Assembly: GCA_963732385.1 (NCBI GenBank)
Contig: CAVSZB010000007.1
Location: 641,685 to 705,684, forward strand
Length of the DNA: 64,000 nt
Direction of reading: 5' to 3'
Origin: an uncultured bacterium
Lineage (GTDB): Bacteria; Krumholzibacteriota; Krumholzibacteriia; LZORAL124-64-63
Shown here in pieces: positions 12,034-59,168 of the stretch. Each line of letters opens with the position of its first letter. Within the stretch, counting starts at the first letter, position 1. A program made the translations under genes and the position numbers. Below the pieces are notes generated by a model. That model saw only the letters and a program-made list of their open reading frames with translations, was not told where the DNA came from and ran no database searches.

Positions 12034-12516
12034 ATGCCACGTCCGCCCCGCTGGCCCGGCTGGCGCGCCGCCTGGCGCACGCTCGCCGGAGGGGATCATT
12101 CGAACCGCAACCTGGCCGCCGCGCTCGCGCTGGGCGTGCTGGTGGCGCCCACGCCGGTGCTCGGCCTGCACACCTGGATGGCGATCGGACTCGCCTTCAC
12201 GTTCCGCGTCAACCGCCTCGCGGCGTTCGTCGGATCGAACGTCGCCAACCCTCTGACCATGATGCCGCTGGTCTGGCTCGACATCGAACTCGGGGCCCGT
12301 CTGCTCGGCCGCCCCGCCCCCGCCTGGCCCGGGCGTGCCGAAGTCTGGGCGCAGTTGGGATGTCTCTATCTGGAGGCCTGGGCCGGGGCGCTGGTCTTGG
12401 GAGCGGCGGGCGCCCTGGCGACCTACGTTCTGGCGCGTCTGTTGTTGCCGGGGTGGCGTCGACGCGCTCAGTCCGCGGCCGCAGCCTCGTCACCAGTCAG
12501 CGGAGACGATTCCTGA
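12034..12516 (+). CDS. DUF2062-like small membrane protein
   Basis: Hydrophobic segments and a conserved-looking LGLHTWMAIGLAFTFRVNRLAAFVGSNVANPLTMMPL core are present. It is 160 aa. Its 3' end overlaps the giant ORF convergently by 49 nt. Confidence 0.55.
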   Translation: MPRPPRWPGWRAAWRTLAGGDHSNRNLAAALALGVLVAPTPVLGLHTWMAIGLAFTFRVNRLAAFVGSNVANPLTMMPLVWLDIELGARLLGRPAPAWPGRAEVWAQLGCLYLEAWAGALVLGAAGALATYVLARLLLPGWRRRAQSAAAASSPVSGDDS

Positions 12517-15500
12517 TACAGCACCATCACGCGCTCGGTGGCGCGGGCGAACACCCGGTAGTGCCGCTGGCGGGACTCACTTCCGAGACAGAGATAGACC
12601 AGGGTGTCGGCGCCGGTGGCACCGCTCGTTTCCGGGGTCGCCAGGGTCACGACCGGCGCGTGGGGCGTCGCCGCGGGAACGGCGAGCCAGTCGGCCAGTT
12701 CCAGCCGCCAGGCTGCCCACAGCGGCCGCTTCACGAAGTGGCCAGGATTCTCGCCGCCGGCTTCGCGCACCAGCCGTTCCACCCGCCGCTGCACCTCGGG
12801 CCGGGCCAGCCACGGAGAGGCCCAGCCACTGCGGGAGACCCGTGCGTGGATCTCCGCGAGCGAGGCCTCTGCCAGCGACTCGGCCGCGGCGAGCCAACGG
12901 GCATAGGCCGCTGCGCCGGACGGATCGAGCAGCACCGGCAGGAGCGGCGTCCGGGCGCCGTCCGCCTTGCCGGCCTGCGCGGCGATATCGCTGACGACGG
13001 CGACGAATTCCAGCGTGCCGGGCAGCAGCAGCGAATCCAGTTCCCAGCGCAGAACCGGCAGCCAGCCCCGGCCGGCGAGCGAGCGCCCGATATAGAGCAG
13101 ATCATCCCGGGCCGTCGCCACGACGGCACTGCGACGGCCGAGCCGGCCGGAAGACTCTTCCGCCCCCAGGTGCGCCACCACTTCGTCCAGGCTCGCCGCG
13201 CCATGCGCCACCGCCTCCCCGCGCTCACGCCGCAAGGCACGACCGCGCGCCGGCCGACCGTCAGGTTCGGCCGCAAAGTGACGCGTTTCCTCCCACACCC
13301 GGCGCGTCTGCGCCCGCTGATCGACACAGTCCACGACCCGCTCCTGGGCAGGAGTGGTCAGGAACAGATGCTCCCAGGGGGCCTCGGCGGCGGCCGGATC
13401 GACCGTCACCAGCAGACGACCGCCGCGATAACGTTGCTGGACGGCGAAGCGGGTCTCGCGCGGCAGCGCCTCCGCATCGATCAGCAGCGCCGTCTCCCGC
13501 GCCGGGTCGCCCGGCAGATATCGACCGGTGAGGGGCGTGGCGCCGGCGGGCGGCGTGCCCTCGGGCGCGATGAAGAGTGCCGGCGCGACCGCCGCGTCGA
13601 CGTCGCGCCGCCAGGCCAGATGGACCCGCGCCGCCACCGCGGACGATGGACACCAGACACTCACCTCGCCGGGCCGCAGCGCGCCGGACGCCGCGGCGTC
13701 AGCCAGCCCGGCGGCCACGGCGGCCAGACGCCCGGTGCCGGCCGGTCCGCGCAGGACGAGCCATCCCGGCTCGGGGCCGGCGAGCAGGTGAGCCACTTTT
13801 GCGGCCGCCTCCGGCGCCGGCGCTCCGACCACGGGTCGCTGCTGCGGCGCCCGGCTCCGCGCCTCTGCCGGCGCGGTCCCGGCGCCCACGCCTGACTCCG
13901 CGCCGAGACGCGCCGCCTGGCCCGTGCGCCAGGCATCCCCATCGGTCAGCAACGCGACCGTGCGGGCGCGGGCCGCCGCCGGTGCGTCCGCCAGCCAGGC
14001 GAGCGCCGACGTGTCGAGCGCCTCTGCCAGCGGCGCGCCCTCGATCCACCAGGCTCCCAGCAGGCAGCCGACCATCGCCACTTCGGACGGCCAGGCCTCA
14101 CCCGGCGCGAGTGCCACTCGTGCTCCCCCGGAGTCACACACGGCCGTCGCCAGCAGGGCGGTCGCCGCGCCGGCGAACCGTTCCGCCTCCTGCGACAGTC
14201 GCTCGGCCACGGCGCGCGGCCGACCCAGCGTGCCAAGCAGCCTGCGGGAGGAGAACAACACCCCTTCGGGCGCGCGCCAGAGCAGCTCCTCCGTCCCGGT
14301 AGTCCCGCGGAACAGATCACCACCGCCACGCACCGACGCCGCGCTCCGCAGGCGGAGCGACATGGCGAGCAGGAACCGGTCAAGCCAGGCCAGATCTTCT
14401 TCCGTATCACCGTCCCCGCCGACTGCCAGATCGCAGACGACCGGCAAGCCCTCCACCGCCCCTTCGAGCCAGGCCGGCAACCGCACCGCGGCCAGGTCCG
14501 CGGCGCGCCCGAGGCGGTACTCCAACTCTGCGAGCGGCAGCGCCAGACGCAATATCGCGGGCTCGTCGGCGCGCCCGGAGTGCGCCGGTTCACAACCGGT
14601 TTCCAGCACGCTCAGCCAGGCCAGCGTGGAGAGCGACGCAACAACGGTCTCGGTCGGCAAGCCGGTCAGCGCCTCCACCACCGCCGCCGGCAGCGTGCCG
14701 CGACAGGTGCGCGCCCACCCGGGCAACTCGGAGCCTGTGCCGACGGGCACGAGCGCGAGCGACCGCTTCACCCGCTCCAGCGCCGGCGGCAACGCCGGAA
14801 CATCCAGATCATCGAGGTGGCTGGCCACGATCAGCGGGCGGCCGGAGCTCGACATCCCCTCTCCGACCCCGGTGCTCAGACCGAATCGGACAACCGACCC
14901 GTACGGCAGGTCCACCCCTTCGTCGTCCAGTTGCAGCACCCGCCACAGGCTTCCGTCCGGTCCGTTTGCTTCCAGCCGCCCGTTCGCTTCTCCGACAACA
15001 AACCCCATACAGGCAAGTTCTTCTTTTATAATGGAATAATCTGCTTTTCTCACATGACACACGAACTCGTGGTCGGGTGGCGCGCGGTGCCGCATGCCGT
15101 CCAGACGCGCCCTCAGAACGGCTCTTCGCCGCCCCTCACGCTGTGCGCTGCTCTGCCAGGTGGAGAGGTCGAGCCCGCAGGCTGCACAGGCCGGCCTTGC
15201 CCCCACCAGCGGCATCGCCCCGGCGCAGTCGGGACAGAGGGCCGACGCGCTCTCGCCCGGCCAGAACTCCTCGGCAGCATCGATCAACAACTCCGGATCT
15301 GCCATCTTCCCAACGGGCTGCGAATTTTCGGCGAGAAAGTGGGCGAACAGGCGGCGCCAGGGGCCGGCCAGACCGCCGAGACAGAAATCGGTGCGAGGCA
15401 GATCGCGGGCCAGGAACCGCAACGCCACCGCAGCCCCGAGCCGTGGTCGCGGTCCGCTCGGCAACCAGGCCTCCAGCCCGAGCACGAACGCCGCCAGCGG

Positions 15501-18500
15501 CGGCCGCGAAGCGATGGCGGCGCGCAACCCCGGATCGGCCAGCGTTTCCGGCGCGGCCCAGAGAACCGGTCCGAGCGGCGGACGGGGCGCGGTCGCGCCA
15601 TCCACTCCGGCGACCGTCGGCGCCGCCGTGGGAAAGACCGCCGCCAGAGCTCCCGCCCCCATCGGCGGCGCCGGCCCGACCGCGAGCAGCCATGCCCCGG
15701 TCTCGCCGCGCTCCCGCGCCGTCGCGACACTCCGCAGCCACGCCGTCCAGACCGCCGCGCCGTCGCCATCGAGCAGCCGGGCGCCGCGCGGCGACGGCTC
15801 CGACTCAGCCTCGCCCGATCCGGCCCACGGCGCCTCCGGGTCGGAAACGGCTCCCTCCTCTCGGCGCCAGGCCGCGACCACCTCCATACCCACCAACGGC
15901 ACCGCTCCGCGCCGGCGCAGGGAGCCGCGTCGGGTCTTCAGCCCCGGCTTCGCCTGCGGCAGATCGTAGCCGACGGCGCCCCCGGCAACGACCCTCGCCA
16001 GCACATCTTCCCCGCGCGCGGGCAGACCCGCGGCCCCGAAGCCGCCCGGCAGCGGAAAACGGCGGCACCAGCGCGGATCGGCCACATCGACAGACGCCGC
16101 ACCGCAGGCCAGCAGGGCGTTCACTTCGAGGCTGCAGAGTCGCCGCTCGTCCGTGAGGGCGACCGCCCGTTCACGATCGGCCAGCGCCCACGCGTCGGGC
16201 CGATCGGCGGCGGGCCTCACATGGTCGGCAACGCCCAGGCTGTCGAGCACCGGAACCACCAGACGCGCACCTGCCAGCGAGGCGGACGTTACCGCTTCGC
16301 TCCACAGTTCCGCGGGATCGAGACAGTCGGGCGGACCGCTGCCGGCCTCGAGGCTGAGTCGTCCGGCGGCGAACGCGCGCCACATTGCCACCGCCGCAGC
16401 CCCGTGCGCCGGCAGCGCCACCACCGGCCGCTCCCCGTCCGCCATCAGGCGCGTCACGTGCCCCAGTCCGCCTGCCCCTGCCTCGTCGGCCAGCACGCAG
16501 GCATCCGGCGCCACGCCTCCGCACGCCAGCGCCAGCGGGGCGTGCCCCCCTTCCCCGGCGAGGCTCGCCTCGACCGCGCCGTACGGCGCCAGCCACGCCG
16601 TCAACAGCGCCGCGAGATCGTCCCCCAGAAAACAGCCGTCGCGGACCAGCGAAAGATGCCGGTGTCCGCGTCGCGCCAGCTTCGCATGCAGTTCCTCCGG
16701 TCGGGCGAGTCCGGCGCGCCGGAGCTGCCAGTGGATCCGCGCGCTGTCCAGGAAGATCCAGGCCGCTTCTCCCCCCTCCCGCACCCCCCAGATCGTGTCG
16801 CGGATCGGATCGCGATCCCGCAGGCGAGAGGGAGGTCCCACGACCACGCACGATTGCCGCGCCCGCGCGGCGTATTCCCCGGCCCACGGGTCGTCGGCGC
16901 CCGCTTCGCCCGGGATCACGCGGGGCAACGAGTCGGCCAGTGCGGCGTGCCGATCCACGACCGGCAACACCCCGGTCGCCCGCGGACGGAGCCGGAGGTG
17001 ATCGAGAAGATCGCCGTTGTGGGACTCGCTCAACCGCAACCAGTGGAAAAGAGGCAGCAGATCAGGTTCCGCTGCCCGCGACGCCGCAGAGTCGGCCGCC
17101 GGCAGCGCCTCCAGCCAGGCCAGTGCCGCCCGCAGCGCATGCACCTCTCCCCCGGGGGGGATGAGCGTGATGCCGCGCCTTCCGGAGACCGCCGACGCCA
17201 GGTCGGCCAGGCGCGCGGCCTGGTCCAGAACCACCCGCCAGACAGCCTCATCCGCTCCCCAGGCGCGCAGCACGGCGAACGGACGGGGCGAGGCCAGCAG
17301 CAGGGCGGCGGCGGACGACAGCGCCGGCCGCCTCTCCACCACGTCCGCGGAAACCGCGCCCAACTCAGGATCGGGACGCTCGGCGAGCGGCGGCAGACGC
17401 CATTCGGCGCCGACCGCGACGTCATCCAGGGAGCCGCCCTGCCCCGCAGCCTGGAAGCGGGCCACGAACACCGCCGCCCGGTCGCCGCGGGAGCCGAGCC
17501 GCCGCACCCCCGCCCGGGTCCGCGGATCGAGCCCGCGCAACCGGGCAAGGCACGCCAGCCAGAGGAATCCGGCGTCGAGCGCAGCCGCCAGCTCCGGAGC
17601 CGCGGCCGAACGTGACGCGTCAGACACTTCACCGGCGGCGTCCGGGGGCGCGTCCCCAGCCGGCGGGGCCAGCAGCGGATGGCCGGTCTGCCGCTCCCAC
17701 GTCGCGCGCCAGGCGACCTCCTGCAATCGCCTGAGCCGGGTCGCAGCCTCCGGGGTCAGCCCATTCGCCGGCAGTTGCGATTCCAGCAGCGCGACCGCAA
17801 ACGGTCCCACCGGCTCGCCGGCGCAGTCATCCCCGAGTTCGCCCCAGAGTCCCCGCCGCCCTTCATCCCACCGGACCAGCCGCCCGCGGCAGGGGCGCAG
17901 GAGTCGAAGCAGGACCTCCGGATCGTCGCCTGCCCGCCAGAGGGCCACGTCACGCGGTTCGTCGTCGCGCCACAGCACGCAGGTCAGCCCCTGCGACGAC
18001 ATCGCCAAAGACGCCCACGCCTCGGCCGGGGAGTCGGCCGGGTTGCGTCGCTCCAGCGCGCGGCGGGCTGCGCCGAAACGTAGCGCGACCGCGCCGTCGG
18101 CGGGAGGACCGACCTCCAGCAGCGCACGCGCCTCGTCGTGCCGCGGGACCGGCAGGTGCTGCGCGTCCAGGTTCGCCAACAGTTCGATCAGGCGCACGCG
18201 CGCCGCCTCGGCACGCGACCGGAAGGGCTCGGGCAGGGCCAGACAGGCCCGGTAGAGCGGGATCGCCGCCGCCGCGTCGCCTGCGTGGGCGTCGGTCAGA
18301 CGGGCGACGCGCCAGATCCGTTCCGCGTGGAATGGTCCGGACTGCGAGAAATATGCCGCTTCGAGCAGGCGCAGCACCGCCTGCGCCAGCGCAATCCGGC
18401 CGGCCGGCGCAACGTTGCCGGCCGCGGCCAGAGCGTCCAGCCACCCCTCAACCTGGGCTCCCAACGCCACACGATCGGCTTCTGCCAGCGGCAGATCGGC

Positions 18501-18974
18501 ACGGATCAGCGCCGGATCGAAGGGGCGACCGGCGCGGCAGGCAGCGGCGATCGTCGCCGGCAGAAGACGCGCCGCAACCGCGCCATCGCACGGATGGAGC
18601 CGGCTGGCAGTGGTGAGACGCAGCGCCGTGGTCAGGAGCTCGAAATCCTCTGCCGGCGCCCCCGCCGGTCCGCCGGCCGGAAAAACGCCCTGGCTCAGAG
18701 CCGCGGCCACCGCGGCACCGGCCCGGTCCAGGTAGTCCGCGCGAAACGTCTCCGCCGCGGCGGGCCAGCGGCCGGACGAGTGCGCATCGGCCTCGGCGCG
18801 ACGCGCCCGTCCCCAAAGCCGGCGTGCGGCATCGGTGACCGTCTCCGAGAGGAAGACCCGGCCGGGCGAGCGCTCCCGCAGCTCGAGCGCCGTGGCAAAG
18901 GCCGCCTCGGCCTCGGCGAGAGCCCCCGCAGCGAGACGCTCACGGGCGGTCGCCAGCGCATCCCAGTAGCTCAT
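12468..18974 (-). CDS. Giant multidomain protein (2168 aa): low-complexity N-terminal 1200 aa, Cys4 zinc ribbon, C-terminal SF1-helicase-like domain with degenerate ATPase motifs
   Basis: The reading frame is uninterrupted for 6.5 kb. The ATG at 18974 (MSYWDAL) has GGAGGG 8 nt upstream and lies 35 nt downstream of leuS on the same strand. Motifs are CPDCAGAMPLVGARPACAACG, GPAGTGRL (Walker A-like), LLIDAEA (Walker B-like) and YRVFARATERVMVL (motif VI-like). Confidence 0.75.
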   Translation of the reverse strand: MSYWDALATARERLAAGALAEAEAAFATALELRERSPGRVFLSETVTDAARRLWGRARRAEADAHSSGRWPAAAETFRADYLDRAGAAVAAALSQGVFPAGGPAGAPAEDFELLTTALRLTTASRLHPCDGAVAARLLPATIAAACRAGRPFDPALIRADLPLAEADRVALGAQVEGWLDALAAAGNVAPAGRIALAQAVLRLLEAAYFSQSGPFHAERIWRVARLTDAHAGDAAAAIPLYRACLALPEPFRSRAEAARVRLIELLANLDAQHLPVPRHDEARALLEVGPPADGAVALRFGAARRALERRNPADSPAEAWASLAMSSQGLTCVLWRDDEPRDVALWRAGDDPEVLLRLLRPCRGRLVRWDEGRRGLWGELGDDCAGEPVGPFAVALLESQLPANGLTPEAATRLRRLQEVAWRATWERQTGHPLLAPPAGDAPPDAAGEVSDASRSAAAPELAAALDAGFLWLACLARLRGLDPRTRAGVRRLGSRGDRAAVFVARFQAAGQGGSLDDVAVGAEWRLPPLAERPDPELGAVSADVVERRPALSSAAALLLASPRPFAVLRAWGADEAVWRVVLDQAARLADLASAVSGRRGITLIPPGGEVHALRAALAWLEALPAADSAASRAAEPDLLPLFHWLRLSESHNGDLLDHLRLRPRATGVLPVVDRHAALADSLPRVIPGEAGADDPWAGEYAARARQSCVVVGPPSRLRDRDPIRDTIWGVREGGEAAWIFLDSARIHWQLRRAGLARPEELHAKLARRGHRHLSLVRDGCFLGDDLAALLTAWLAPYGAVEASLAGEGGHAPLALACGGVAPDACVLADEAGAGGLGHVTRLMADGERPVVALPAHGAAAVAMWRAFAAGRLSLEAGSGPPDCLDPAELWSEAVTSASLAGARLVVPVLDSLGVADHVRPAADRPDAWALADRERAVALTDERRLCSLEVNALLACGAASVDVADPRWCRRFPLPGGFGAAGLPARGEDVLARVVAGGAVGYDLPQAKPGLKTRRGSLRRRGAVPLVGMEVVAAWRREEGAVSDPEAPWAGSGEAESEPSPRGARLLDGDGAAVWTAWLRSVATARERGETGAWLLAVGPAPPMGAGALAAVFPTAAPTVAGVDGATAPRPPLGPVLWAAPETLADPGLRAAIASRPPLAAFVLGLEAWLPSGPRPRLGAAVALRFLARDLPRTDFCLGGLAGPWRRLFAHFLAENSQPVGKMADPELLIDAAEEFWPGESASALCPDCAGAMPLVGARPACAACGLDLSTWQSSAQREGRRRAVLRARLDGMRHRAPPDHEFVCHVRKADYSIIKEELACMGFVVGEANGRLEANGPDGSLWRVLQLDDEGVDLPYGSVVRFGLSTGVGEGMSSSGRPLIVASHLDDLDVPALPPALERVKRSLALVPVGTGSELPGWARTCRGTLPAAVVEALTGLPTETVVASLSTLAWLSVLETGCEPAHSGRADEPAILRLALPLAELEYRLGRAADLAAVRLPAWLEGAVEGLPVVCDLAVGGDGDTEEDLAWLDRFLLAMSLRLRSAASVRGGGDLFRGTTGTEELLWRAPEGVLFSSRRLLGTLGRPRAVAERLSQEAERFAGAATALLATAVCDSGGARVALAPGEAWPSEVAMVGCLLGAWWIEGAPLAEALDTSALAWLADAPAAARARTVALLTDGDAWRTGQAARLGAESGVGAGTAPAEARSRAPQQRPVVGAPAPEAAAKVAHLLAGPEPGWLVLRGPAGTGRLAAVAAGLADAAASGALRPGEVSVWCPSSAVAARVHLAWRRDVDAAVAPALFIAPEGTPPAGATPLTGRYLPGDPARETALLIDAEALPRETRFAVQQRYRGGRLLVTVDPAAAEAPWEHLFLTTPAQERVVDCVDQRAQTRRVWEETRHFAAEPDGRPARGRALRRERGEAVAHGAASLDEVVAHLGAEESSGRLGRRSAVVATARDDLLYIGRSLAGRGWLPVLRWELDSLLLPGTLEFVAVVSDIAAQAGKADGARTPLLPVLLDPSGAAAYARWLAAAESLAEASLAEIHARVSRSGWASPWLARPEVQRRVERLVREAGGENPGHFVKRPLWAAWRLELADWLAVPAATPHAPVVTLATPETSGATGADTLVYLCLGSESRQRHYRVFARATERVMVLYQESSPLTGDEAAAAD

Positions 18975-19009
18975 GTTGCCCGCCCTCCGTGGCGGGGTCG
19001 TCGCGCCGG

Positions 19010-21553
19010 TCAGGCGTCGGCAACGACGATGTTCACCAGCTTGCCCGGCACCACGATCACCCTGCGGACCGGGCGACCGGCGATCAGTTCCGGTATCCGT
19101 CCGTGGCGCTGCGCGGCCGCCTCGATGCTGGCGCGATCGGCATCGACCGGGGACTCCATCTCGTCGCGAATCCGGCCGTTGATCTGCAGGACCAGCTTCA
19201 CCGTGGTGCGCAGCAGCGCCGTTTCGTCCCACTGCGGCCACGGCTGGTCGAACACGCTCGGCAGCCCGCCGAGCCGCGTCCACAACTCTTCGCCCAGGTG
19301 CGGCGCGAACGGCGCGAGCATCCGGACCAGCGCGGCGAGCGCTTCGCGGTACGCCTCATCATCCAGCCCCGCCGCGTTGCGCCCGGCGTAGGCGTAGATG
19401 GCGTTGGTCAGCTCCATCAGGCGGCTGAGCGCGGTGTTGAAATGGAACCGCTGCAGATCGACCGTGCAATGTTTGATCGACCCGTGCAGCCAGCGGCGCA
19501 ACTCGGCCCGCCGGTCGGAGAGTTCGCCCGCCGGGATCGGCGGCGGCTCGAACGGCGCATCGCCGGCCGGCGAACGCCCCTCGGCAGCCGCGTCCAGCAG
19601 CCGCCAGACCCGGTGCAGATAGCGATGGATCCCCTCGATGCCGTCGTCCTTCCAGTCGCCGCCGGCTTCGAACGCGAACCCGAACATCAGGTAGACGCGC
19701 AGCGTGTCCGTGCCGTACCGCCCGAGGTAGACCTCTGGGTTGACCACGTTGCCGCGCGACTTGGCCATCTTCTCGCCATCGCGGGTGATCAGCCCCTGGT
19801 GCACCAGTCGCTGGAACGGCTCGTCGAACGCCAGGTGACCCTGGTCATGGAGGAATTTCGTGATGAAGCGGGAGTAGATCAGATGGCCGCAGGTGTGCTC
19901 CGGGCCGCCGACGTACTGGTCCACCGGCAGCCAGGCGTTGACCAGCTCGCGGTCGAACGGCCGGTCGGCCAGATGCGGCGTAAGGTAGCGCAGGAAATAC
20001 CACGAACTGCAGACGAAGGTGTCCATCGTATCGGGGTCGCGCTGCGCCGCCCCGCCGCAGCGCGGACAGGCCACATCCATGTAGGTGGGAGAACTGGCCA
20101 GCGGCGATTTGCCGTGCGGACGGAAATCGACATCGTCCGGCAGCCGGACCGGCAGCTCCAACTCCGGCACCGGGACCATGCCGCAGGCCGGGCAGTGCAC
20201 GATCGGGATCGGCGCGCCCCAGTAGCGCTGGCGGCTGATCAGCCAGTCCCGCAGACGGTACTGCACCGTGGCGCGTCCCCGTCCCGTCGCGGCGAGATCG
20301 GCGGCGATCCTGGCCCCGCCCTCGGCGCTGGTGAGACCGTCGTAGGCGCCGGAGGCGGTCATGACGCCAGGCTCCGTGCGGGCCGCCGTCAGCGGCGCCG
20401 CGCCGTCCTCGTCCGGCCCCCGGATGACCCGTCGCACCGGCAGTCCGTGGACCGCCGCGAAAGCGAAGTCCCGCTCGTCGTGACCCGGCACCGCCATCAC
20501 AGCGCCGGTGCCATAGGAGCCGATCACGTAGTCGGCCACCCAGACCGGCACCGCTTCGCCGTTGATCGGGTTGACGGCCACCGCGCCGGTGGCCACCCCG
20601 GTCTTCTCCCGGGTCGTGCTCGTGCGATCGATCTCGCTCAGCAGCGCGGCGCGCCGGGCGTACTCCGCCACGGCCTCCCGGCGCGACGACTCCGTCAGCG
20701 CGGCGACCAGCGGGTGCTCCGGCGCGAGCACCACGTAGGTGACCCCGAACAGCGTGTCCGGGCGGGTGGTGAACACCTGCAGCGGCGCCGCCCCGTCGGG
20801 GAGGGGGTCGAAACCGCTCGGCAACGCCTCCTGCAGGCTCGCGGCCGGCACGCCAAAGACGATCTCCGCCCCTTCGCTCCGTCCGATCCAGTTGATCTGG
20901 CGCTTCTTCGTCTCGGCCGGCCAGTCTATCCGATCGAGCCCCTCGATCAGGCGATCCGCGTAGTCGGTGATGCGGAAGCACCACTGCGTGAGCTTGCGCC
21001 GTGCGACGAGGCTCTGGCAACGCCAGCAGGCCCCCTCCTCCACCTGTTCGTTGGCCAGCACCGTCTGGCAGGAGTCGCACCAGTTGACCGGCATCTCGGC
21101 GCGATAGGCCAGCCCGGCGGCGTACAGCTGCAGGAAGAGCCACTGGTTCCACTTGTAGTACTCGGGACGGTGCGTGGCGATCTCGTGGTCGAAATCGTAC
21201 ATCGCCCCCATCGCCCGCAACTGTTCGCGGATGAAGGTGATGTTCTCCTCGGTGTGCCGCCCGGGCTGCACGCCGGTCTTGATCGCGAAATTCTCGGCCG
21301 GCAGCCCGAAACTGTCGTAGCCGATCGGCTCGAAGACGCGCGCCCCCTGCATGCGCCGGAACCGCGCCCAGGTATCTGCCGGCACGAAGTTGAACCAATG
21401 CCCCAGATGCAGCTTGTCCCCGGAGGGGTAGAGGAACATCACCAGGCAGTAGCACTTGTGCGCGGCGCGCGTGAGGTCCGTCCGGTGGAGACCGTCCATC
21501 TCCCAGCGCTGGCGCCAGCGGCTTTCGACCTCGGCGAAATTGTACTCGGCCAT
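19010..21553 (-). CDS. leuS: Leucine--tRNA ligase
   Basis: The HLGH (HIGH-class) and KMAKSRGN (KMSKS) motifs, CP1 editing region and MAEYNFAEVESRW N-terminus are present. The start is an ATG at 21553. Confidence 0.95.
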   Translation of the reverse strand: MAEYNFAEVESRWRQRWEMDGLHRTDLTRAAHKCYCLVMFLYPSGDKLHLGHWFNFVPADTWARFRRMQGARVFEPIGYDSFGLPAENFAIKTGVQPGRHTEENITFIREQLRAMGAMYDFDHEIATHRPEYYKWNQWLFLQLYAAGLAYRAEMPVNWCDSCQTVLANEQVEEGACWRCQSLVARRKLTQWCFRITDYADRLIEGLDRIDWPAETKKRQINWIGRSEGAEIVFGVPAASLQEALPSGFDPLPDGAAPLQVFTTRPDTLFGVTYVVLAPEHPLVAALTESSRREAVAEYARRAALLSEIDRTSTTREKTGVATGAVAVNPINGEAVPVWVADYVIGSYGTGAVMAVPGHDERDFAFAAVHGLPVRRVIRGPDEDGAAPLTAARTEPGVMTASGAYDGLTSAEGGARIAADLAATGRGRATVQYRLRDWLISRQRYWGAPIPIVHCPACGMVPVPELELPVRLPDDVDFRPHGKSPLASSPTYMDVACPRCGGAAQRDPDTMDTFVCSSWYFLRYLTPHLADRPFDRELVNAWLPVDQYVGGPEHTCGHLIYSRFITKFLHDQGHLAFDEPFQRLVHQGLITRDGEKMAKSRGNVVNPEVYLGRYGTDTLRVYLMFGFAFEAGGDWKDDGIEGIHRYLHRVWRLLDAAAEGRSPAGDAPFEPPPIPAGELSDRRAELRRWLHGSIKHCTVDLQRFHFNTALSRLMELTNAIYAYAGRNAAGLDDEAYREALAALVRMLAPFAPHLGEELWTRLGGLPSVFDQPWPQWDETALLRTTVKLVLQINGRIRDEMESPVDADRASIEAAAQRHGRIPELIAGRPVRRVIVVPGKLVNIVVADA

Positions 21554-24835: not shown

Positions 24836-27800
24836 TCAGCGCGCCACCACGACGCGCCCCCTGAGCACCCCGCCCGGGTGCGTCAGGACCACCAGGTAGG
24901 CGCCGGCCGCCACGGGGCGGCCGTCGTCGCCGCGAGCATCCCAGGCGAGAACCCCCGTTTCCGCCAGATTCCCCGTGGCCAGCCGCCGGACGCGCCGGCC
25001 GCGCAGATCGTACACTTCCAGACACCGCGGACCGTTGGCCGGGATGCCGCGCCAGGCCACGCGCAGACGACCGGCCGCGGGGTTGGGCGAGACCGTGAGC
25101 ACACCGCGCGACAATACGACCGGCCCTGCGGTCCCGGTCGGAGCGGACTCGGAGAGTGGGCAGGCGCCGCTGTTGCGTCCGTCACCGCGGACGCCGACCC
25201 AGTTCGCGCCCTCGCCGCGGGGAAGCGCCCCCACCTGCGCGGTCAACGCGGCACCGACCGCGGTTACGCGGACCCAGCCGGTCCCGTCCCGGGTCGACAT
25301 CAGAGCTGCGCCAAGACCGGGCGGCACCACTGCGAGCGGCCCGCCCACGGCCTGGGGGGACCGCTCCGCGCCCACGATTCCTGTCCCCTCCGTCAGCCAG
25401 CCGAGACAGGCTCCCCTCAGATTCGGGGTGCCGGCGATTAGTTCCTCCCAGCCGATCCCCGCCAAAAACTGCGGTTCCGGCGCCGACGACCCGTTGCTGT
25501 TCCAGGCGAGCGGCGCCGGCAGCAGGGTCCAGCGAGGCTGCAGATTGCCATCGGACGTGAACCCCTTCACCAGCACGCCCGCCAGCGGCGTGGCGCTGAC
25601 CAGCCCGTCGGCCGACAGACAGATCGAGGCCAGCCGCCAGCGCAGGGAATCGTGCGCGACCCCGGTGACATAGAGCCCCTGCACGACCACCCGGGGCCCC
25701 CCCCGACCGTCTCACGATAGACGGCCGGATCGGACAGTGACAGCCAGCGTCCACCGTCGGGCGCCTGGGCCTCGGCACCGTCGCCCGCCGCGGCGACCCC
25801 GTTCCCCCGCAGAATCCGGAACACGACTTCGCGCTGCTCCAGCCCGGCCGGATGCACGAGCACGATCTCGTGCCGGCCATCACCGTCGCGGTCCGCCAGC
25901 ACCGGGGCACGCAGTCCGGACACCGCCAGTGTGACCGGCCAGCCCGGCAGCAGTCCGGCATCGCCCGCAACCGTGATCCGCCCGCTGGGAAATGCGACCA
26001 CATACTCTTCGCCCGGCTCTCCGTCGAGCTGTCCTACTGCGGGGGGGAGCGGCTCCGTGCCATCAAGCGCGAGCGTCGCCACGATTGCGCCGGCCGGCGT
26101 CACCCGCTTCAGGATTCCGGTCGGGCTGACGACCGCGACCTCACGCCCGCCGTCGAACCGCTCCCGACCGACCGGCGCCGTGAGCGGGACATTCGCGGAA
26201 GCCGCGTCGACAACCATGTAACTGCCGGAGGCGCCCAGCAGGTAAAGCTTGCCGAACGCCGAGGCGACCGCGATTTCGTCACCCGGCAGAGCGTCGAGAT
26301 TCCAGACCAGCGGCGCCGTGAGAGGACCCTGCAGATTCGTGGGGAGGAAGATGGAGACCGGCCAGCCGACGCGCTCGTGCCCCGTTCCGTCGAGCGCGTG
26401 CACCAATCGGGCCTGTGGATCGATCGTGGCCGCCCCGGTGCAGATGAGCGTGGGCGTGCCGGTCGCCCCGAGAACGCCGGCGACCGGCCAGCCAGCCAGA
26501 CCGCCACCGAGGGTGGCGGACCAGGCCGGGTCGGTCGATTCCGCCGGGTCGGTCAGGGTGATGGTGACGCGTCCGGTGCCTGACAGCCTTTTCACCACCA
26601 CGAAACAGAAGCCCTGTTCCGGAGTCCGGAAGCTGCCCAGCTCCCGCCCACCCATGCCAGCCGCGTCGACCCGGATCGACGGCAGCCCCTCACCCGGGTC
26701 GAGCAGACGGCGGATATCGTGGATCTCGAGCCCCACGTCGAGACCAACCGAAGGCACCGCCTCCACCACGCACTGCCGGTCCGGCTGCAGGGACAGCCGC
26801 CGCGCCACGCTCCGCCGCCCCGCGGTGCCACCGAGCGAATCGACGGCCGAGCCCCCGCCCGGCAACGGCGCCAGAAGCGCCTCGATGGCGGCCGGCACCT
26901 GGAGCAGCCCCCAGCCCCGCACGCTGTCGGGCACGGCCAGCCAGGGCGCTAGCGCCAGCCGCGCCGCGCCGTCTGGCGTCTCGGACACCAGCACCGGCGC
27001 GGCGGTTCCGCGCAGCAGGGCCGAAACCAGATCGCCGACAACCGCACCTTCGTCGGGCCACCCCTCCTTGCGCAGTGCCTCCAACACGAGGAACTCCCCC
27101 GCCGCCACGTGGGCCGCCGCGAGCGAGGTGCCTCGCCGTTCCGACGTGCTGTCATCGGGCTCATTGTCGGTCGTGCAAATGCCGCCGGCCGCCTGCAGCA
27201 CGCCGCCGCCGGGAGCCACGAGATCAGGCTTCCTGTCTGGCGGCAGACCGTGTCCGCTCGTGCCGGCGAGTTCGCCGGCATCATTGACCGCCCCCACACC
27301 GACCACCGATGGCAGCCGGGCCGGGTAGCCGGGCGGCAATATGGCGCCTCCGTTACCCATAGCCGCCACGACCAGGATGCCGGCGGCGCGCAACTCGTCC
27401 ATCGCCGCGCCAAGGCCGAGATCGAGGTCCCAGTTGACCGCGCAGAGCGCGACCCGCACCCGGCACTGCGCGCGGTGATCCAGCAGCCAGGCGCAGGCGG
27501 CCAGGAAATCCCCCTGCCACTGACGCCACACGCCGTCGAAGTCATAGAACTTGACGATCGTCAGCCGGCCCGAGGGGGCCAGACCGCGATACCGTACGTC
27601 GAGTTCGCCTGCTCCGGCGACGACTCCCGCCAGGGCCGTGCCGTGCCAGTGGTAATCCCACGGTCCGGCGGCGAGCGGGAAATCATCCGTAACGTCGTGC
27701 CAGCCGACCACTTTGTATTCGAGGAACAGGGGCCACCCGAACTCTGCGGAGCTCCAGTCGAGGGCATCCCCGACGAGGGGCGGCGGACCATCGCGGTTGT

Positions 27801-28467
27801 CGTGCGAGAAATCGCCGAGATCGTCGTGCGCCGTATCGCAGCCGGAGTCGAGGATCGCAACCGAAGCTGTCCAGTCCCCTTCCAAACGCCACTGCCCCGC
27901 GCGGGCCAACGACACTCCGCAAAGCACGCTGCTCCGATCCAGCGCCGGCGTGCCGTCCCGGTCCAGCACCAGCCGGCCCGAGAGGGGCGCCGCAAGCAGC
28001 GCCCGCAGACCGACCGGATCGACCGCCAGCGCCTCCACGCCGCCGAACCGCGACAACCGGTGCAGCACCCGCACCACGCCGCCCGCCGCGCGGGCGTCCG
28101 CCGCTGCCGTCGCCACGCCCTCCGCGTTTCCGCCGAGCCGCAGCAGACGCAACTCGCCCCGTGCCAGCGGCCCGGGTGCGGGGAGGGGGACATGGGCCGG
28201 CCAATGACCCAGCTTCGCGGCAGGATCCTCCTGGTCGGCACTGGCGCGCGCGACCAGTTCAGCCCAGCCGGCGCGACCCGCACCCCAGTCGTCGAGCAGA
28301 TCCTCGACTCCGTTATCGTCAAGATCGAGCGGACCGGCAGACGCCGCCCAAGCGGGACGACCCTCTCCATCCATCAGACAGCAGGCGACGAGCAGGCAGA
28401 GGGAAAGCGCGACTCCCGGGCTCGGCGGCACCCGAAGTCGCCGGACTGCCCGCCTTTGGTATGACAT
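24836..28467 (-). pseudogene. Subtilisin-like S8 peptidase with T9SS (Por) C-terminal sorting domain, interrupted by a frameshift in a G8 homopolymer
   Basis: The 985-aa ORF (25567..28524) has a signal peptide plus the S8 motifs HGTALAGVVAG and GTSLAAAHVAG. A 284-aa ORF in a different frame (24836..25690) continues it and ends in a T9SS CTD (LEVYDLRGRRVRRL...WDARGDDGRPVAAGAYLVVL). Both frames are open only across 25570..25711, which contains the C8 run 25697..25704. This could equally be a sequencing error or a phase-variable tract. Confidence 0.7.
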
Positions 28468-30029: not shown

Positions 30030-30080
30030 CTCGGTACCGCCTCCTGTCAGATTCGCCCCGCGCGATCCGCCGCGCGCGGC

Positions 30081-30857
30081 CTATTCCACCGCGTCCGCGG
30101 CGTCCGGGGTAGCCTTCTTCTGCGTGGCGCGGCCCCGTTCCGGGCCGCCCGCTTCGGTCGCCTCCGGCAGATCGGGGCGCCGCGTCCGAGTCCTGATCCG
30201 CGCCTGCTCGCGCCGCCATGCCTCAATCCGGGCATGATGTCCCGAAAGCAGGATCTCCGGCACCGCCAGTTCGCGGTAGACCGGCGGCCGCGTGTACCAC
30301 GGACCGTCGAGTCCCCCCGCCTGCTGTTCGGTGAAGCTGTCTCCCGCCGCGGAGTCCTCGTTGTGGAGGACGCCCGGCAGGCGCCGCACGATGGCGTCGA
30401 TGACCACCAGTGCCGGAAGTTCGCCGCCCGACAACACGTAATCGCCGATCGACACCTCGCGGGTCGCCACCAGCTCCCGCACCCGCTCGTCCACACCCTT
30501 GTAGTGCCCGCAGACCAGCAGCAGTTCGCCCGCCGTCTGCGCCGCCTCCACCAGTTCCATCACCAGCCGCTCACTCAACGGCTCGCCCTGCGGCGAGGTG
30601 AGAACCACCGGCGTGGCCGCCGACTGCCGGTTTCCCTCCACCGCTTCCACGATCGGCGGCGCCATCATGATCATCCCGGGTCCGCCGCCGTAGGGCGTGT
30701 CGTCGACCGTCCCATGCCGGTCCACCGCGAAGTCCCGGATGTCCACTACCGAATAGGCCACCTGCCCCTGCTGCTCGGCCCGCCCCGGAATGCTGGTGCC
30801 GAGAACCGTCCGGACCATGTCCGGGAACAGCGTCAGCACCGTGATCTTAAGGGCCAT
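30081..30857 (-). CDS. trmD: tRNA (guanine37-N1)-methyltransferase
   Basis: The N-terminus [15 protein letters not shown] and a SPOUT-fold C-terminus are present. Position after rimM fits. Confidence 0.9.
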
Positions 30858-47505: not shown

Positions 47506-48265
47506 CTCGGACCTCACTTTGTGACAGGGACTCCGTTTGCCTGCCCCGCCGCACCCTGCGGGTCAGGCCCGTCACCGCTCGCCAGGGCACGCCACATCCG
47601 CTGCTCGACTCCAGAGCAATCGCTGCGTCCGCGGCGCCGCCCACATCATCGCCCCGGTGAATCCGGGTCGGCTCGCGATGGCGGCTCTCCTGGCAGGGGC
47701 TCGAACACTCCGACACGACAGCCCCTGCACAATCGGACTCAGTATTCGGATGACGCGAAATCGTGTCAACAAAAAATGAAGACAAGCTCACCTTTTTTGT
47801 TGCGCGCCATCGGACGTCCATCGTGCCGCGCGTGTGCATGACGCTCGACGCACGCGCGCCTCATCCAGCAACGCTCGACCCGCGTGCGCATCACGCGCGC
47901 CATACTCCCATCACCTCCTCTCCATCCCTCGACCCCGCGCGCAGCGTCATTTCACGCGCACCGGTGCTGCGCGCCAATCACCGAGCAACGATACGCCGGC
48001 ACTGCGCCAACGCGCATCAGCCGCCGGCGAATCGCATGACGACAGAGGATCCGCCGGAAACGATCCCTGTCTCGAACAGCACGATGACCCGGCGTGGCGG
48101 ACCGCGTTGCGCGTTGCGCGTTGCCGATTTTGAAGTGGGAGAAATGCCGCCGGCCCGACGGCGAGGAGTAGCCTGGTATTCCTGAAGTCCAGGATCGAGA
48201 CGGGGCAACGCTGGCGCAATCGTCGGTTTCGCGGGCACGGCCAGAGACATCACCGGACTCACCCG

Positions 48266-48300
48266 AAAAAGCGCGGGGCCGCCTCACGACGGCCCCGCGC
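48266..48300 (-). terminator. Rho-independent terminator downstream of tRNA-Leu
   Basis: A perfect 11-bp stem GCGCGGGGCCG/CGGCCCCGCGC with an 8-nt loop is followed by UUUUU on the minus strand. Confidence 0.7.
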
Positions 48301-48307
48301 TCTGATC

Positions 48308-48392
48308 TGGTGCCCGGGGCGGGATTTGAACCCGCACGACTTTCGCCACTGCCCCCTCAAGACAGCGTGTCTACCAATTCCACCACCCGGGC
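48308..48392 (-). tRNA. tRNA-Leu (anticodon GAG), CCA encoded
   Basis: I folded it by hand as GCCCGGG / D-arm GTGG-AATTGGTAGA-CAC / anticodon stem CTGTC-TTGAGGG-GGCAG / long variable arm / T-arm GCGGG-TTCAAAT-CCCGC / CCCGGGC-ACCA. Confidence 0.9.
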
Positions 48393-48412
48393 CACGCTGG
48401 ACCGGACCGCCT

Positions 48413-48775
48413 TCAGCGACCCGGCGGGGTTTCGGCCGGCTGCCCGGCGGGCTGTCCCGTCGGAGCCACGGGCGCCGGCGACTGCGAGGCCGCTCCGCGA
48501 GCAGCCTCCCTCACCACGGAATGGCCGCTGGTCGCGCCGCGCTGGGCCGACAGCCCGAACAACAGCGCGGAGGTGATGAAGAAGCCCGCGGCCAGATAGA
48601 TCGTCAGCTTGTGCAGAATGGTCGTCATGCCGCGGCTGCCGAAAATCTGCTGCGGCAGTCCGCCACCGCCGCCGAAAGCTCCCGCCAGGCCGCTGCCCTT
48701 GCTGGATTGCAGCAGCACCACCACACACAGCACGACGCTGACCAGGATGTGGAGAATCAGAATGATTGTGTACAT
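48413..48775 (-). CDS. secG: Preprotein translocase subunit SecG
   Basis: The sequence MYTIILILHILVSVVLCVVVLLQSSKGSGLAGAFGGGG...QIFGSRG, with two TM segments, is present. Confidence 0.85.
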   Translation of the reverse strand: MYTIILILHILVSVVLCVVVLLQSSKGSGLAGAFGGGGGLPQQIFGSRGMTTILHKLTIYLAAGFFITSALLFGLSAQRGATSGHSVVREAARGAASQSPAPVAPTGQPAGQPAETPPGR

Positions 48776-58309: not shown

Positions 58310-59050
58310 TCACCCTTCAGAGTCCGGACAGGGATCCCCGCCCGCTTGCCAATCAGGTCCGGGCCAGCCGTGCTCCCTGAGACTCGTGAACTCTCCCCGA
58401 CCGACCACGATATGGTCGAGCAACTCGATGCCCAGCAACCGTCCGCAGCGCGCGAGGCGGCCGGTCAGTCCGATATCGTCCCCGCTCGGTCGCGCGCACC
58501 CGGACGGGTGATTGTGCGCCGCGATCACCGCCGCCGCGCCCAGGGCCACCGCGCCGCGGAACAGTTCCCGCGGATGCACCAGCGACGCGTCGAGGCAACC
58601 GACCGAAACCGTTTCCACGGCCAGGACCCGATGGCGCGCGTCCAGCAACACCGCCAGGAAGTGCTCCCGGTCACAGCCGCGGAATTCCTCCTCCAGCACC
58701 GGCAGCAGGTCCTGGGGACGCGTCACCACGAGTCCGCGTACGCGACCCGGCGCGGACGCCCGCGCGCCCAGTTCAAAGGCGGCCGCGAGTCGTCCCGCCC
58801 GCCCGGGGCCACACCCCGGTTCGCGCAACAGAACCGCCGTCCGCAGGCCGCACAGCGCCGAGAGAGAGTCGTGGCGACCGAGCAGACTGGCCGCCAGCAC
58901 CGGAGCCGGTACCGGCCCGCCCGGACCGAGCACCAGCGCCAGCAACTCCGCCGGCGAGAGCGACTTGGCGCCGCCGCGCAACAAACGCTCGACGGCCGAA
59001 CCGGCCGCCGGCACCCGAGACGCGCCGCCGGCAGGGGCCGCCCCCCCCTG
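58310..59050 (-). CDS. radC: RadC-family JAB/MPN domain protein
   Basis: The motif HNHPSGCARPSGDD (JAMM) is present. The start is uncertain; the track ORF extends to 59275. Confidence 0.8.
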   Translation of the reverse strand, partial: QGGAAPAGGASRVPAAGSAVERLLRGGAKSLSPAELLALVLGPGGPVPAPVLAASLLGRHDSLSALCGLRTAVLLREPGCGPGRAGRLAAAFELGARASAPGRVRGLVVTRPQDLLPVLEEEFRGCDREHFLAVLLDARHRVLAVETVSVGCLDASLVHPRELFRGAVALGAAAVIAAHNHPSGCARPSGDDIGLTGRLARCGRLLGIELLDHIVVGRGEFTSLREHGWPGPDWQAGGDPCPDSEG

Positions 59051-59168
59051 CAATATGCGTATCTCTTTGTTTTCCAGCGTACTACAGTTGTATGGAAGCG
59101 CGAGCAAGTTAGCAGCCCCCCCTTGACCGGGCAACCTTTTTCTCCGCCACGGCCGCTCCGCTTTCCGC

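Follow-up and report, generated by a model that had tools for sequence, protein, structure and literature searches.

The DNA analysed here, a 64,000-nt stretch with a G+C content of 70% (the window), carries on its minus strand a large gene for an S8 peptidase. The reading frame of this gene changes at a run of eight G (25697-25704), which on the plus strand is the C8 run CCCCCCCC. The features of the locus are:

24836..28467, minus strand: whole gene, encoding a 1,210-aa S8 peptidase once the run has one extra G
28378..28467, minus strand: putative N-terminal signal sequence, lipobox-like LLVAC/C, read by eye; conserved in L001 and L003 (see below)
27001..27864, minus strand: predicted Peptidase_S8 catalytic domain, residues 202-489 (PF00082, E = 1.4e-26)
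25567..28467, minus strand: upstream CDS as assembled, 966 aa, identical to the public protein P0002
25697..25704, minus strand: G8 homopolymer (C8 on the plus strand), the site of the frame change; in orthologues G9, encoding Gly-Gly-Gly
24836..25711, minus strand: downstream frame, open from a stop at 25711 to a stop at 24836, giving the last 286 protein residues
24836-25570, minus strand: public call P0126, 244 aa, with a GTG start at 25570, on the same contig as P0002
24881..25021, minus strand: FlgD_ig-like C-terminal beta-sandwich, residues 1150-1196 (PF13860, 30.8 bits against a cut-off of 27)

With one G added to the run, the gene is predicted to encode a secreted or surface S8 (subtilisin-like) peptidase that is conserved in Krumholzibacteriia-type bacteria. 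The PF00082 match on the restored protein scored 93.9 bits (cut-off 21.8), and alignment to solved subtilisins placed the catalytic motifs at ILDSG (Asp), HWHGT (His), MGNGG (Asn) and GTSLAAAH (Ser). With a family model above threshold and the catalytic D/H/S in place, the predicted product belongs to the Peptidase S8 (subtilase) family. Its N-terminus, MSYQRRAVRRLRV...LCLLVACC, resembles by eye a signal sequence with a lipobox, and the predicted layout continues with the S8 domain, followed by an extended middle part that carries an FG-GAP-like motif; the C-terminal domain is of a FlgD_ig/T9SS-like type. Subtilases (MEROPS S8) that end in a T9SS/FlgD_ig-type beta-sandwich sorting domain are common in the FCB group, and the window protein is like them in its S8 D/H/N/S motifs and in a C-terminal domain of ~80 residues that matches PF13860. 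Unlike T9SS-type subtilases, it scored below the cut-off of the T9SS type A sorting model TIGR04183 (residues 1126-1208, 19.7 bits, cut-off 23), and its lipoprotein-like N-terminus is atypical for T9SS cargo. The first-pass annotation had named a T9SS sorting domain; a C-terminal domain of the FlgD_ig type is indeed predicted, but the T9SS label is weakened by the TIGR04183 score and by PF18962 (Por_Secre_tail), which was recorded in only 7 of the best 120 of 149 homologues.

As assembled, the upstream frame runs from an ATG at 28467 to a TGA at 25567-25569. It is true to the protein as far as ...AVYRETVGGG and then adds 42 out-of-frame residues (PGWSCRGSMS...ACW). The downstream frame lies at -1 relative to it and reads ...GGPRVVVQGLYVTG..., and both frames are open across 25567-25711, an overlap of 145 nt that bears out the earlier estimate of about 140. 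With G9 the tract and its flanks read GAGACGGTCGGGGGGGGGCCCCGGGTGG, and with G8 GAGACGGTCGGGGGGGGCCCCGGGTGG. Insertion of one G gave ...RETVGGGPRVVVQGLYVTG... and a 1,210-aa product counted from the ATG, in which ...RETVGGG is fused to PRVVVQGLYVTG... and the peptide across the junction reads ...RETVGGGPRVVVQ... in the restored frame. Removal of one G from the run did not restore the frame, so that the contiguous protein of about 1,210 aa expected from a 1-nt indel is obtained by addition and not by deletion. Independently of any orthologue alignment, a codon-usage Viterbi segmentation set the frame switch at 25693/25694, and the codon-usage model exits the upstream frame 127 nt ahead of that frame's stop. 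The window contains two C8/G8 runs against 9.5 ± 4.5 expected from dinucleotide-preserving shuffles: the G8 run by itself is no commoner than chance, long homopolymers are depleted in the window, and the significance of this run comes only from its coincidence with the frame break.

A protein search with the restored sequence returned 149 matches. More than 100 of the best 120 were 1,160-1,260 aa long with 92-100% query coverage (mostly 96-99%), the best match (P0001) being a 1,198-aa protein at 88% identity and 99% coverage. P0002 was itself among the matches (966 aa, 100% identity, 76% coverage) and comes from a contig of 1,596,956 bp held at both NCBI and ENA. Homologues that carry names are S8 family serine peptidases from Candidatus Krumholzibacteriia/Krumholzibacteriota MAGs. 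An alignment with 111 homologues of at least 1,100 aa was unbroken through the junction, and none of these full-length proteins ended there. Right after the junction, the pattern LRVxxxGL...W.L was conserved family-wide. The Gly-Gly-Gly itself falls in a variable loop and, like the run, is not seen in orthologues whose identity is 57% or lower.

According to the public annotation, the locus would hold two separate real genes, a 966-aa S8 protease and an independent 244-aa protein with a FlgD_ig domain. The gene callers did produce exactly these two products, P0002 and P0126, and the start of P0126 overlaps the upstream TGA as GTGA, although such a start/stop overlap is typical of gene-caller rescue. 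Not only do all 111 full-length homologues cross the junction, but orthologues offer no match to the 42 residues that close the 966-aa product, whereas they do match the other frame. The codon-usage model abandons the upstream frame well before its stop, and coding conservation extends over the 47 codons that separate the run from the GTG called as the start. We rejected two real genes on the orthologue comparison, in which the frame is single throughout, and assign that arrangement a negligible probability; orthologues run past the site, and the two-gene alternative kept by the first-pass annotation is thereby refuted. Judged by its homologues, the locus is almost certainly one gene of ~1,210 aa rather than the public 966-aa and 244-aa CDS. 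The practical value of the finding is this correction of two public CDS to one 1,210-aa S8 peptidase, since the truncated form would falsely imply a protease without a sorting domain.

We compared the tract in syntenic loci whose neighbours are those of the window (rplS, RNase HII and UPF0102 upstream; STAS, SpoIIE and HDOD downstream):

L001, JGI 3300037492, 176-kb contig: G9; gene intact, 1,198 aa
L002, JGI 3300036977: G9; gene intact, 1,198 aa
L003, JGI 3300037481: G9; gene intact, 1,198 aa
L005, Logan ERR12084952: G9; gene intact, 1,210 aa
L004, ENA ERZ25039477, contig_27656, 289 kb: G7C5; gene broken
Window, 1.6-Mb contig, NCBI and ENA: G8C4; gene broken

These loci were 90-94% identical to the window over ~5-13 kb aligned and ~89-92% identical inside the gene. 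Across 3,596 aligned gene positions (3.6 kb, 89.5% identity), the sole internal gap between the window and L001 was 1 nt at the run, in agreement with the original description of a subtilase gene split by a 1-nt length change in G8/C8. At this site L003 reads GAGACGGTC GGGGGGGGG CCCCGGG and the window GAGACGGTC GGGGGGGG CCCCGGG. Close relatives from independent, mostly short-read, assemblies thus have G9 and an intact ORF; we saw no tract-length polymorphism among the four intact loci, all of them G9 and all from JGI or Logan, and the short tracts occurred only in the two NCBI/ENA contigs, those of the window and L004.

The L004 contig, which has a Flye-style name, is demonstrably error-ridden. 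At least eight private 1-nt insertions were present in 9.6 kb, splitting the protease gene into pieces of 371, 439 and 246 aa and also breaking the SpoIIE and HDOD genes. At the tract, L004 is also one base short: it reads G7C5, where L003, 96.5% identical to it, reads G9C4. The tract is thus miscalled in a contig with evident errors, and marks a place where consensus of the long-read type fails.

An independent assembly of the window's own lineage (>97% identity) spanning the run was not found in protein, contig and neighbour-gene searches. A search with the neighbouring STAS protein recovered an identical protein on a single Logan contig (ERR15459710), whose 1.5 kb do not extend as far as the run, and a search with rplS gave nine contigs at 91-96% identity, none of the window's lineage and none reaching the run. 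When genome contigs were scanned with the junction peptide, only one distant relative, at 46% identity, appeared among the matches listed. In metagenome contigs, a two-anchor pattern across the run, which does match L001-L005, had 0 matches, and a single 21-mer had one chance match; this collection is without these relatives. The C-terminal 418 aa retrieved only the window's 244-aa CDS, the L004 fragment and distant proteins.

The part of the gene downstream of the break showed no stop codons or further indels in its 286 codons. Its dN/dS values of 0.42 (against L003) and 0.28 (against L001) compare with 0.30 and 0.28 for the upstream part, and the downstream part is intact and still under purifying selection. 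With no decay downstream and similar dN/dS on both sides, the lesion must be very recent if it is real at all.

Full-length protein could still arise from a G8 template if ribosomes shifted by -1 on G_GGG_GGC or if transcription slipped and added a G, in which case truncated and full-length products would both be made on purpose. The downstream frame is the -1 frame of the upstream one, G GGG GGC is formally an X XXY YYZ heptamer, and polymerase slippage on long homopolymers rescues frameshifted genes in some bacteria. Yet the orthologues are all single-frame with G9, leaving the two-frame arrangement unconserved, and the 123 nt from just upstream of the run onward fold like shuffles (z = 0.17; 105 of 200 shuffles at least as stable). 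To our knowledge, heptamers made only of G do not rank with the efficient slippery sites of bacteria, and transcriptional slippage occurs less on G/C runs than on A/T runs. We rejected a programmed frameshift, given a two-frame layout that is not conserved and an unremarkable RNA structure, and hold recoding of either kind to be very improbable.

Most of our confidence lies with an error: the G8 is probably a 1-nt under-call, in the assembly, of a G9 homopolymer and not biology. On this account the locus holds one working gene, the tract in the organism is most likely G9 (GGG GGG GGG, Gly-Gly-Gly), and we infer that the reads of the sample would have it too. The long-read consensus would have dropped one base from the G/C homopolymer to give the assembled G8, and gene callers would then have divided the gene into the 966-aa and 244-aa CDS. 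The window's contig probably derives from long reads, because a contig of 1,596,956 bp is very unlikely to come from short reads of an uncultured bacterium with 70% GC. The lesion is a 1-nt length change confined to a homopolymer, as expected of a long-read artefact. In ONT R10.4 data, read-level homopolymer accuracy varies at lengths of 8-9, especially for cytosines, although the R10.4 consensus resolves most runs shorter than 11 (PMC9262707). PacBio and ONT assemblies of a high-G+C bacterium differed only within G/C homopolymers of 4-10 bp, which were 1 bp shorter in one platform's assembly (PMC11649196). The window's tract is like such ONT or PacBio miscalls: a G/C run of 8-9 nt comes out one base short, the genome has 70% GC, and one ORF is split into two adjacent CDS where the JGI/Logan assemblies of relatives are intact.

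The remainder of the window departs from the general long-read error pattern. We found no further frame breaks in the 64 kb using a GC3/ORF map, codon-model Viterbi segmentation and Pfam searches on 10 overlapping ORFs. These ten other overlapping ORFs were full-length family members (TGT, QueA, RuvB, MreB, RadC and others), all same-strand overlaps were ordinary gene boundaries, and by the codon-model Viterbi segmentation every other gene in the window stays in frame to within 100 nt of its stop. The G/C runs that cause no such break include ten 7-mers and many 6-mers. The window being otherwise clean, the assembly is therefore not generally error-prone, which counts against an artefact, and an error here would be rare and residual. 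In clean high-GC long contigs, residual frame breaks at the longest G/C runs would be the ones to distrust.

The same general accuracy of the window's consensus speaks for a real G8, a reading that we consider unlikely, although it retains appreciable weight. A recent slipped-strand deletion in G9 would have created a null or OFF allele, now the majority allele of the population: either a young pseudogene or polymorphism, or a reversible phase-variable switch in its OFF state. Translation would then leave the true sequence after residue 924, add 42 junk residues and stop, and the product would lack both the last part of the middle region and the sorting or anchoring domain at the C-terminus; the FlgD_ig domain is missing from the truncated product. 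A G9 tract is intrinsically mutable in vivo, and a real -1 slip would look identical to the artefact. Tracts of this type, G9/G8 within the coding sequence of a secreted or surface protease, are prone to slip in vivo, and the intact downstream part is as compatible with a very recent or reversible change as with an artefact. The G9 has also been kept in two other lineages that are 7-10% divergent, giving at least three related lineages with all-GGG codons, although GGG accounts for just 24% of Gly codons and the 26 other Gly-Gly-Gly tripeptides sampled in the window include no all-GGG one. Retention of three GGG codons at a dS of ~0.2-0.3 is nevertheless statistically unremarkable. Further against a real G8, length variants are confined to the window's 1.6-Mb contig and the error-ridden L004, with G9 at the four intact loci, and in a family with dN/dS of ~0.3 and full-length proteins in >100 relatives, a majority-OFF state would need selection for loss.

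The first-pass annotation had named both a sequencing error and slipped-strand phase variation. Error is favoured by the G9 in four loci, by L004 and by the intact downstream part, and the phase-variation device went unsupported. Poly-G/C contingency loci are established in Campylobacter, Neisseria and Bordetella, and the form of such a locus is present here, in that the ORF for an S8 peptidase with a putative signal sequence contains a G8/G9 tract. As in those genera, the G tract of 8-9 nt is intragenic, the gene is for an exported protein, and a change of +/-1 toggles between full-length and truncated products. Unlike those loci, the window's tract does not extend beyond a shallow clade, and the window has fewer long homopolymers than expected instead of more. 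Between lineages, the tract length was G9 four times, G8 once and G7C5 once. Neither maintenance of the tract over evolution, in the homologue alignment, nor enrichment of such tracts in the genome, in the window shuffles, was observed: the Gly3 and the run are missing in distant orthologues, in a variable loop, arguing against long-term maintenance of a switch, and homopolymers of at least 8 are depleted, unlike in genomes that use simple-sequence contingency loci. That the G8 is real and the G9/G8 tract an evolved phase-variable ON/OFF switch for the exported subtilase is at best improbable, and evolved phase variation found no more positive support than programmed frameshifting, which had none. 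We know of no phase variation described in uncultured environmental Krumholzibacteriia-type bacteria; were the switch true, a free-living environmental lineage would be using a homopolymer to phase-vary a secreted protease.

Under either an under-called G9 or a real G8 the finding is ordinary, and it is mainly a matter of quality control. With a real G8, a conserved exported protease would have been lost recently or switched OFF, which would be of modest interest, rising beyond that only with tract-length heterogeneity inside the population.

Within the 13 kb compared, the window carried one other private 1-nt indel, an extra C at 30033-30034, which adds to the case for an assembly error at the run. 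This base sits in the spacer between the Shine-Dalgarno sequence and the ATG of rplS, in a stretch that is otherwise nearly invariant, and 13 of 13 relatives are without it. L001, L002, L003 and L005 had no private 1-nt indels in the compared stretch. Separately, a partial Logan contig (L006) showed one private 4-nt deletion.

The S8 peptidase gene is also broken in a public contig of a close relative.

Positions 1-13320 of contig_27656 (ENA ERZ25039477): syntenic stretch of the close relative, L004

Judging from its sequence, this contig is an unpolished long-read-type assembly, because private 1-nt insertions, at least 8 of them within 9.6 kb, fragment several of its genes: the S8 peptidase is split into pieces of 371, 439 and 246 aa, SpoIIE into 169 and 194 aa, and the HDOD gene is likewise fragmented. 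Protein calls from this contig are now present in public protein clusters.

Besides the run in the S8 peptidase gene, the window holds only one 8-mer homopolymer.

59041-59048: C8 homopolymer at the radC 5' end (minus strand: G8)

We saw no frame break in radC at this run, which lies within codons 3-5 if the start is the in-frame TTG at 59053, and in the 5' UTR if translation begins at a GTG near 59014.

The trmD-rplS spacer was compared with that of relatives.

30033-30087, minus strand: spacer between trmD and rplS

An extra C (CC at 30033-30034), downstream of the GGAGG Shine-Dalgarno and ahead of the ATG of rplS, is private to the window and absent from all 13 relatives. The 53 nt upstream of it (30035-30087) are near-invariant in 14 loci that are 91-96% identical elsewhere, a conservation far above that of the flanking genes; the sole change among these loci is a C-to-A, again private to the window. 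This segment contains a GC-rich hairpin. The spacer has no Rfam match, and its fold was no better than that of shuffled sequences (z = -0.56).

Across the whole window, tRNA-Leu(GAG) was the only Rfam family found at gathering score, and it is the sole recognised feature within a stretch where the codon model detected no coding signal.

47509-48511: stretch of about 1 kb without coding signal
48308-48392, minus strand: tRNA-Leu(GAG)

Directly downstream of leuS lies a very long open frame.

12468-19355, minus strand: open frame of 2,296 codons, stop to stop

Its counterpart in L001, a syntenic locus of a relative, has no recorded Pfam family and is called at 2,171 aa.

The S8 peptidase itself may begin with a lipoprotein signal.

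28378-28467, minus strand: S8 peptidase N-terminus, putative lipoprotein signal

Here a lipobox-like LLVAC|C, preceded by a basic n-region, is kept in L001 and in L003, a second syntenic locus. If true, a lipoprotein signal and a T9SS-like C-terminal domain in one S8 peptidase would be an unusual pairing.
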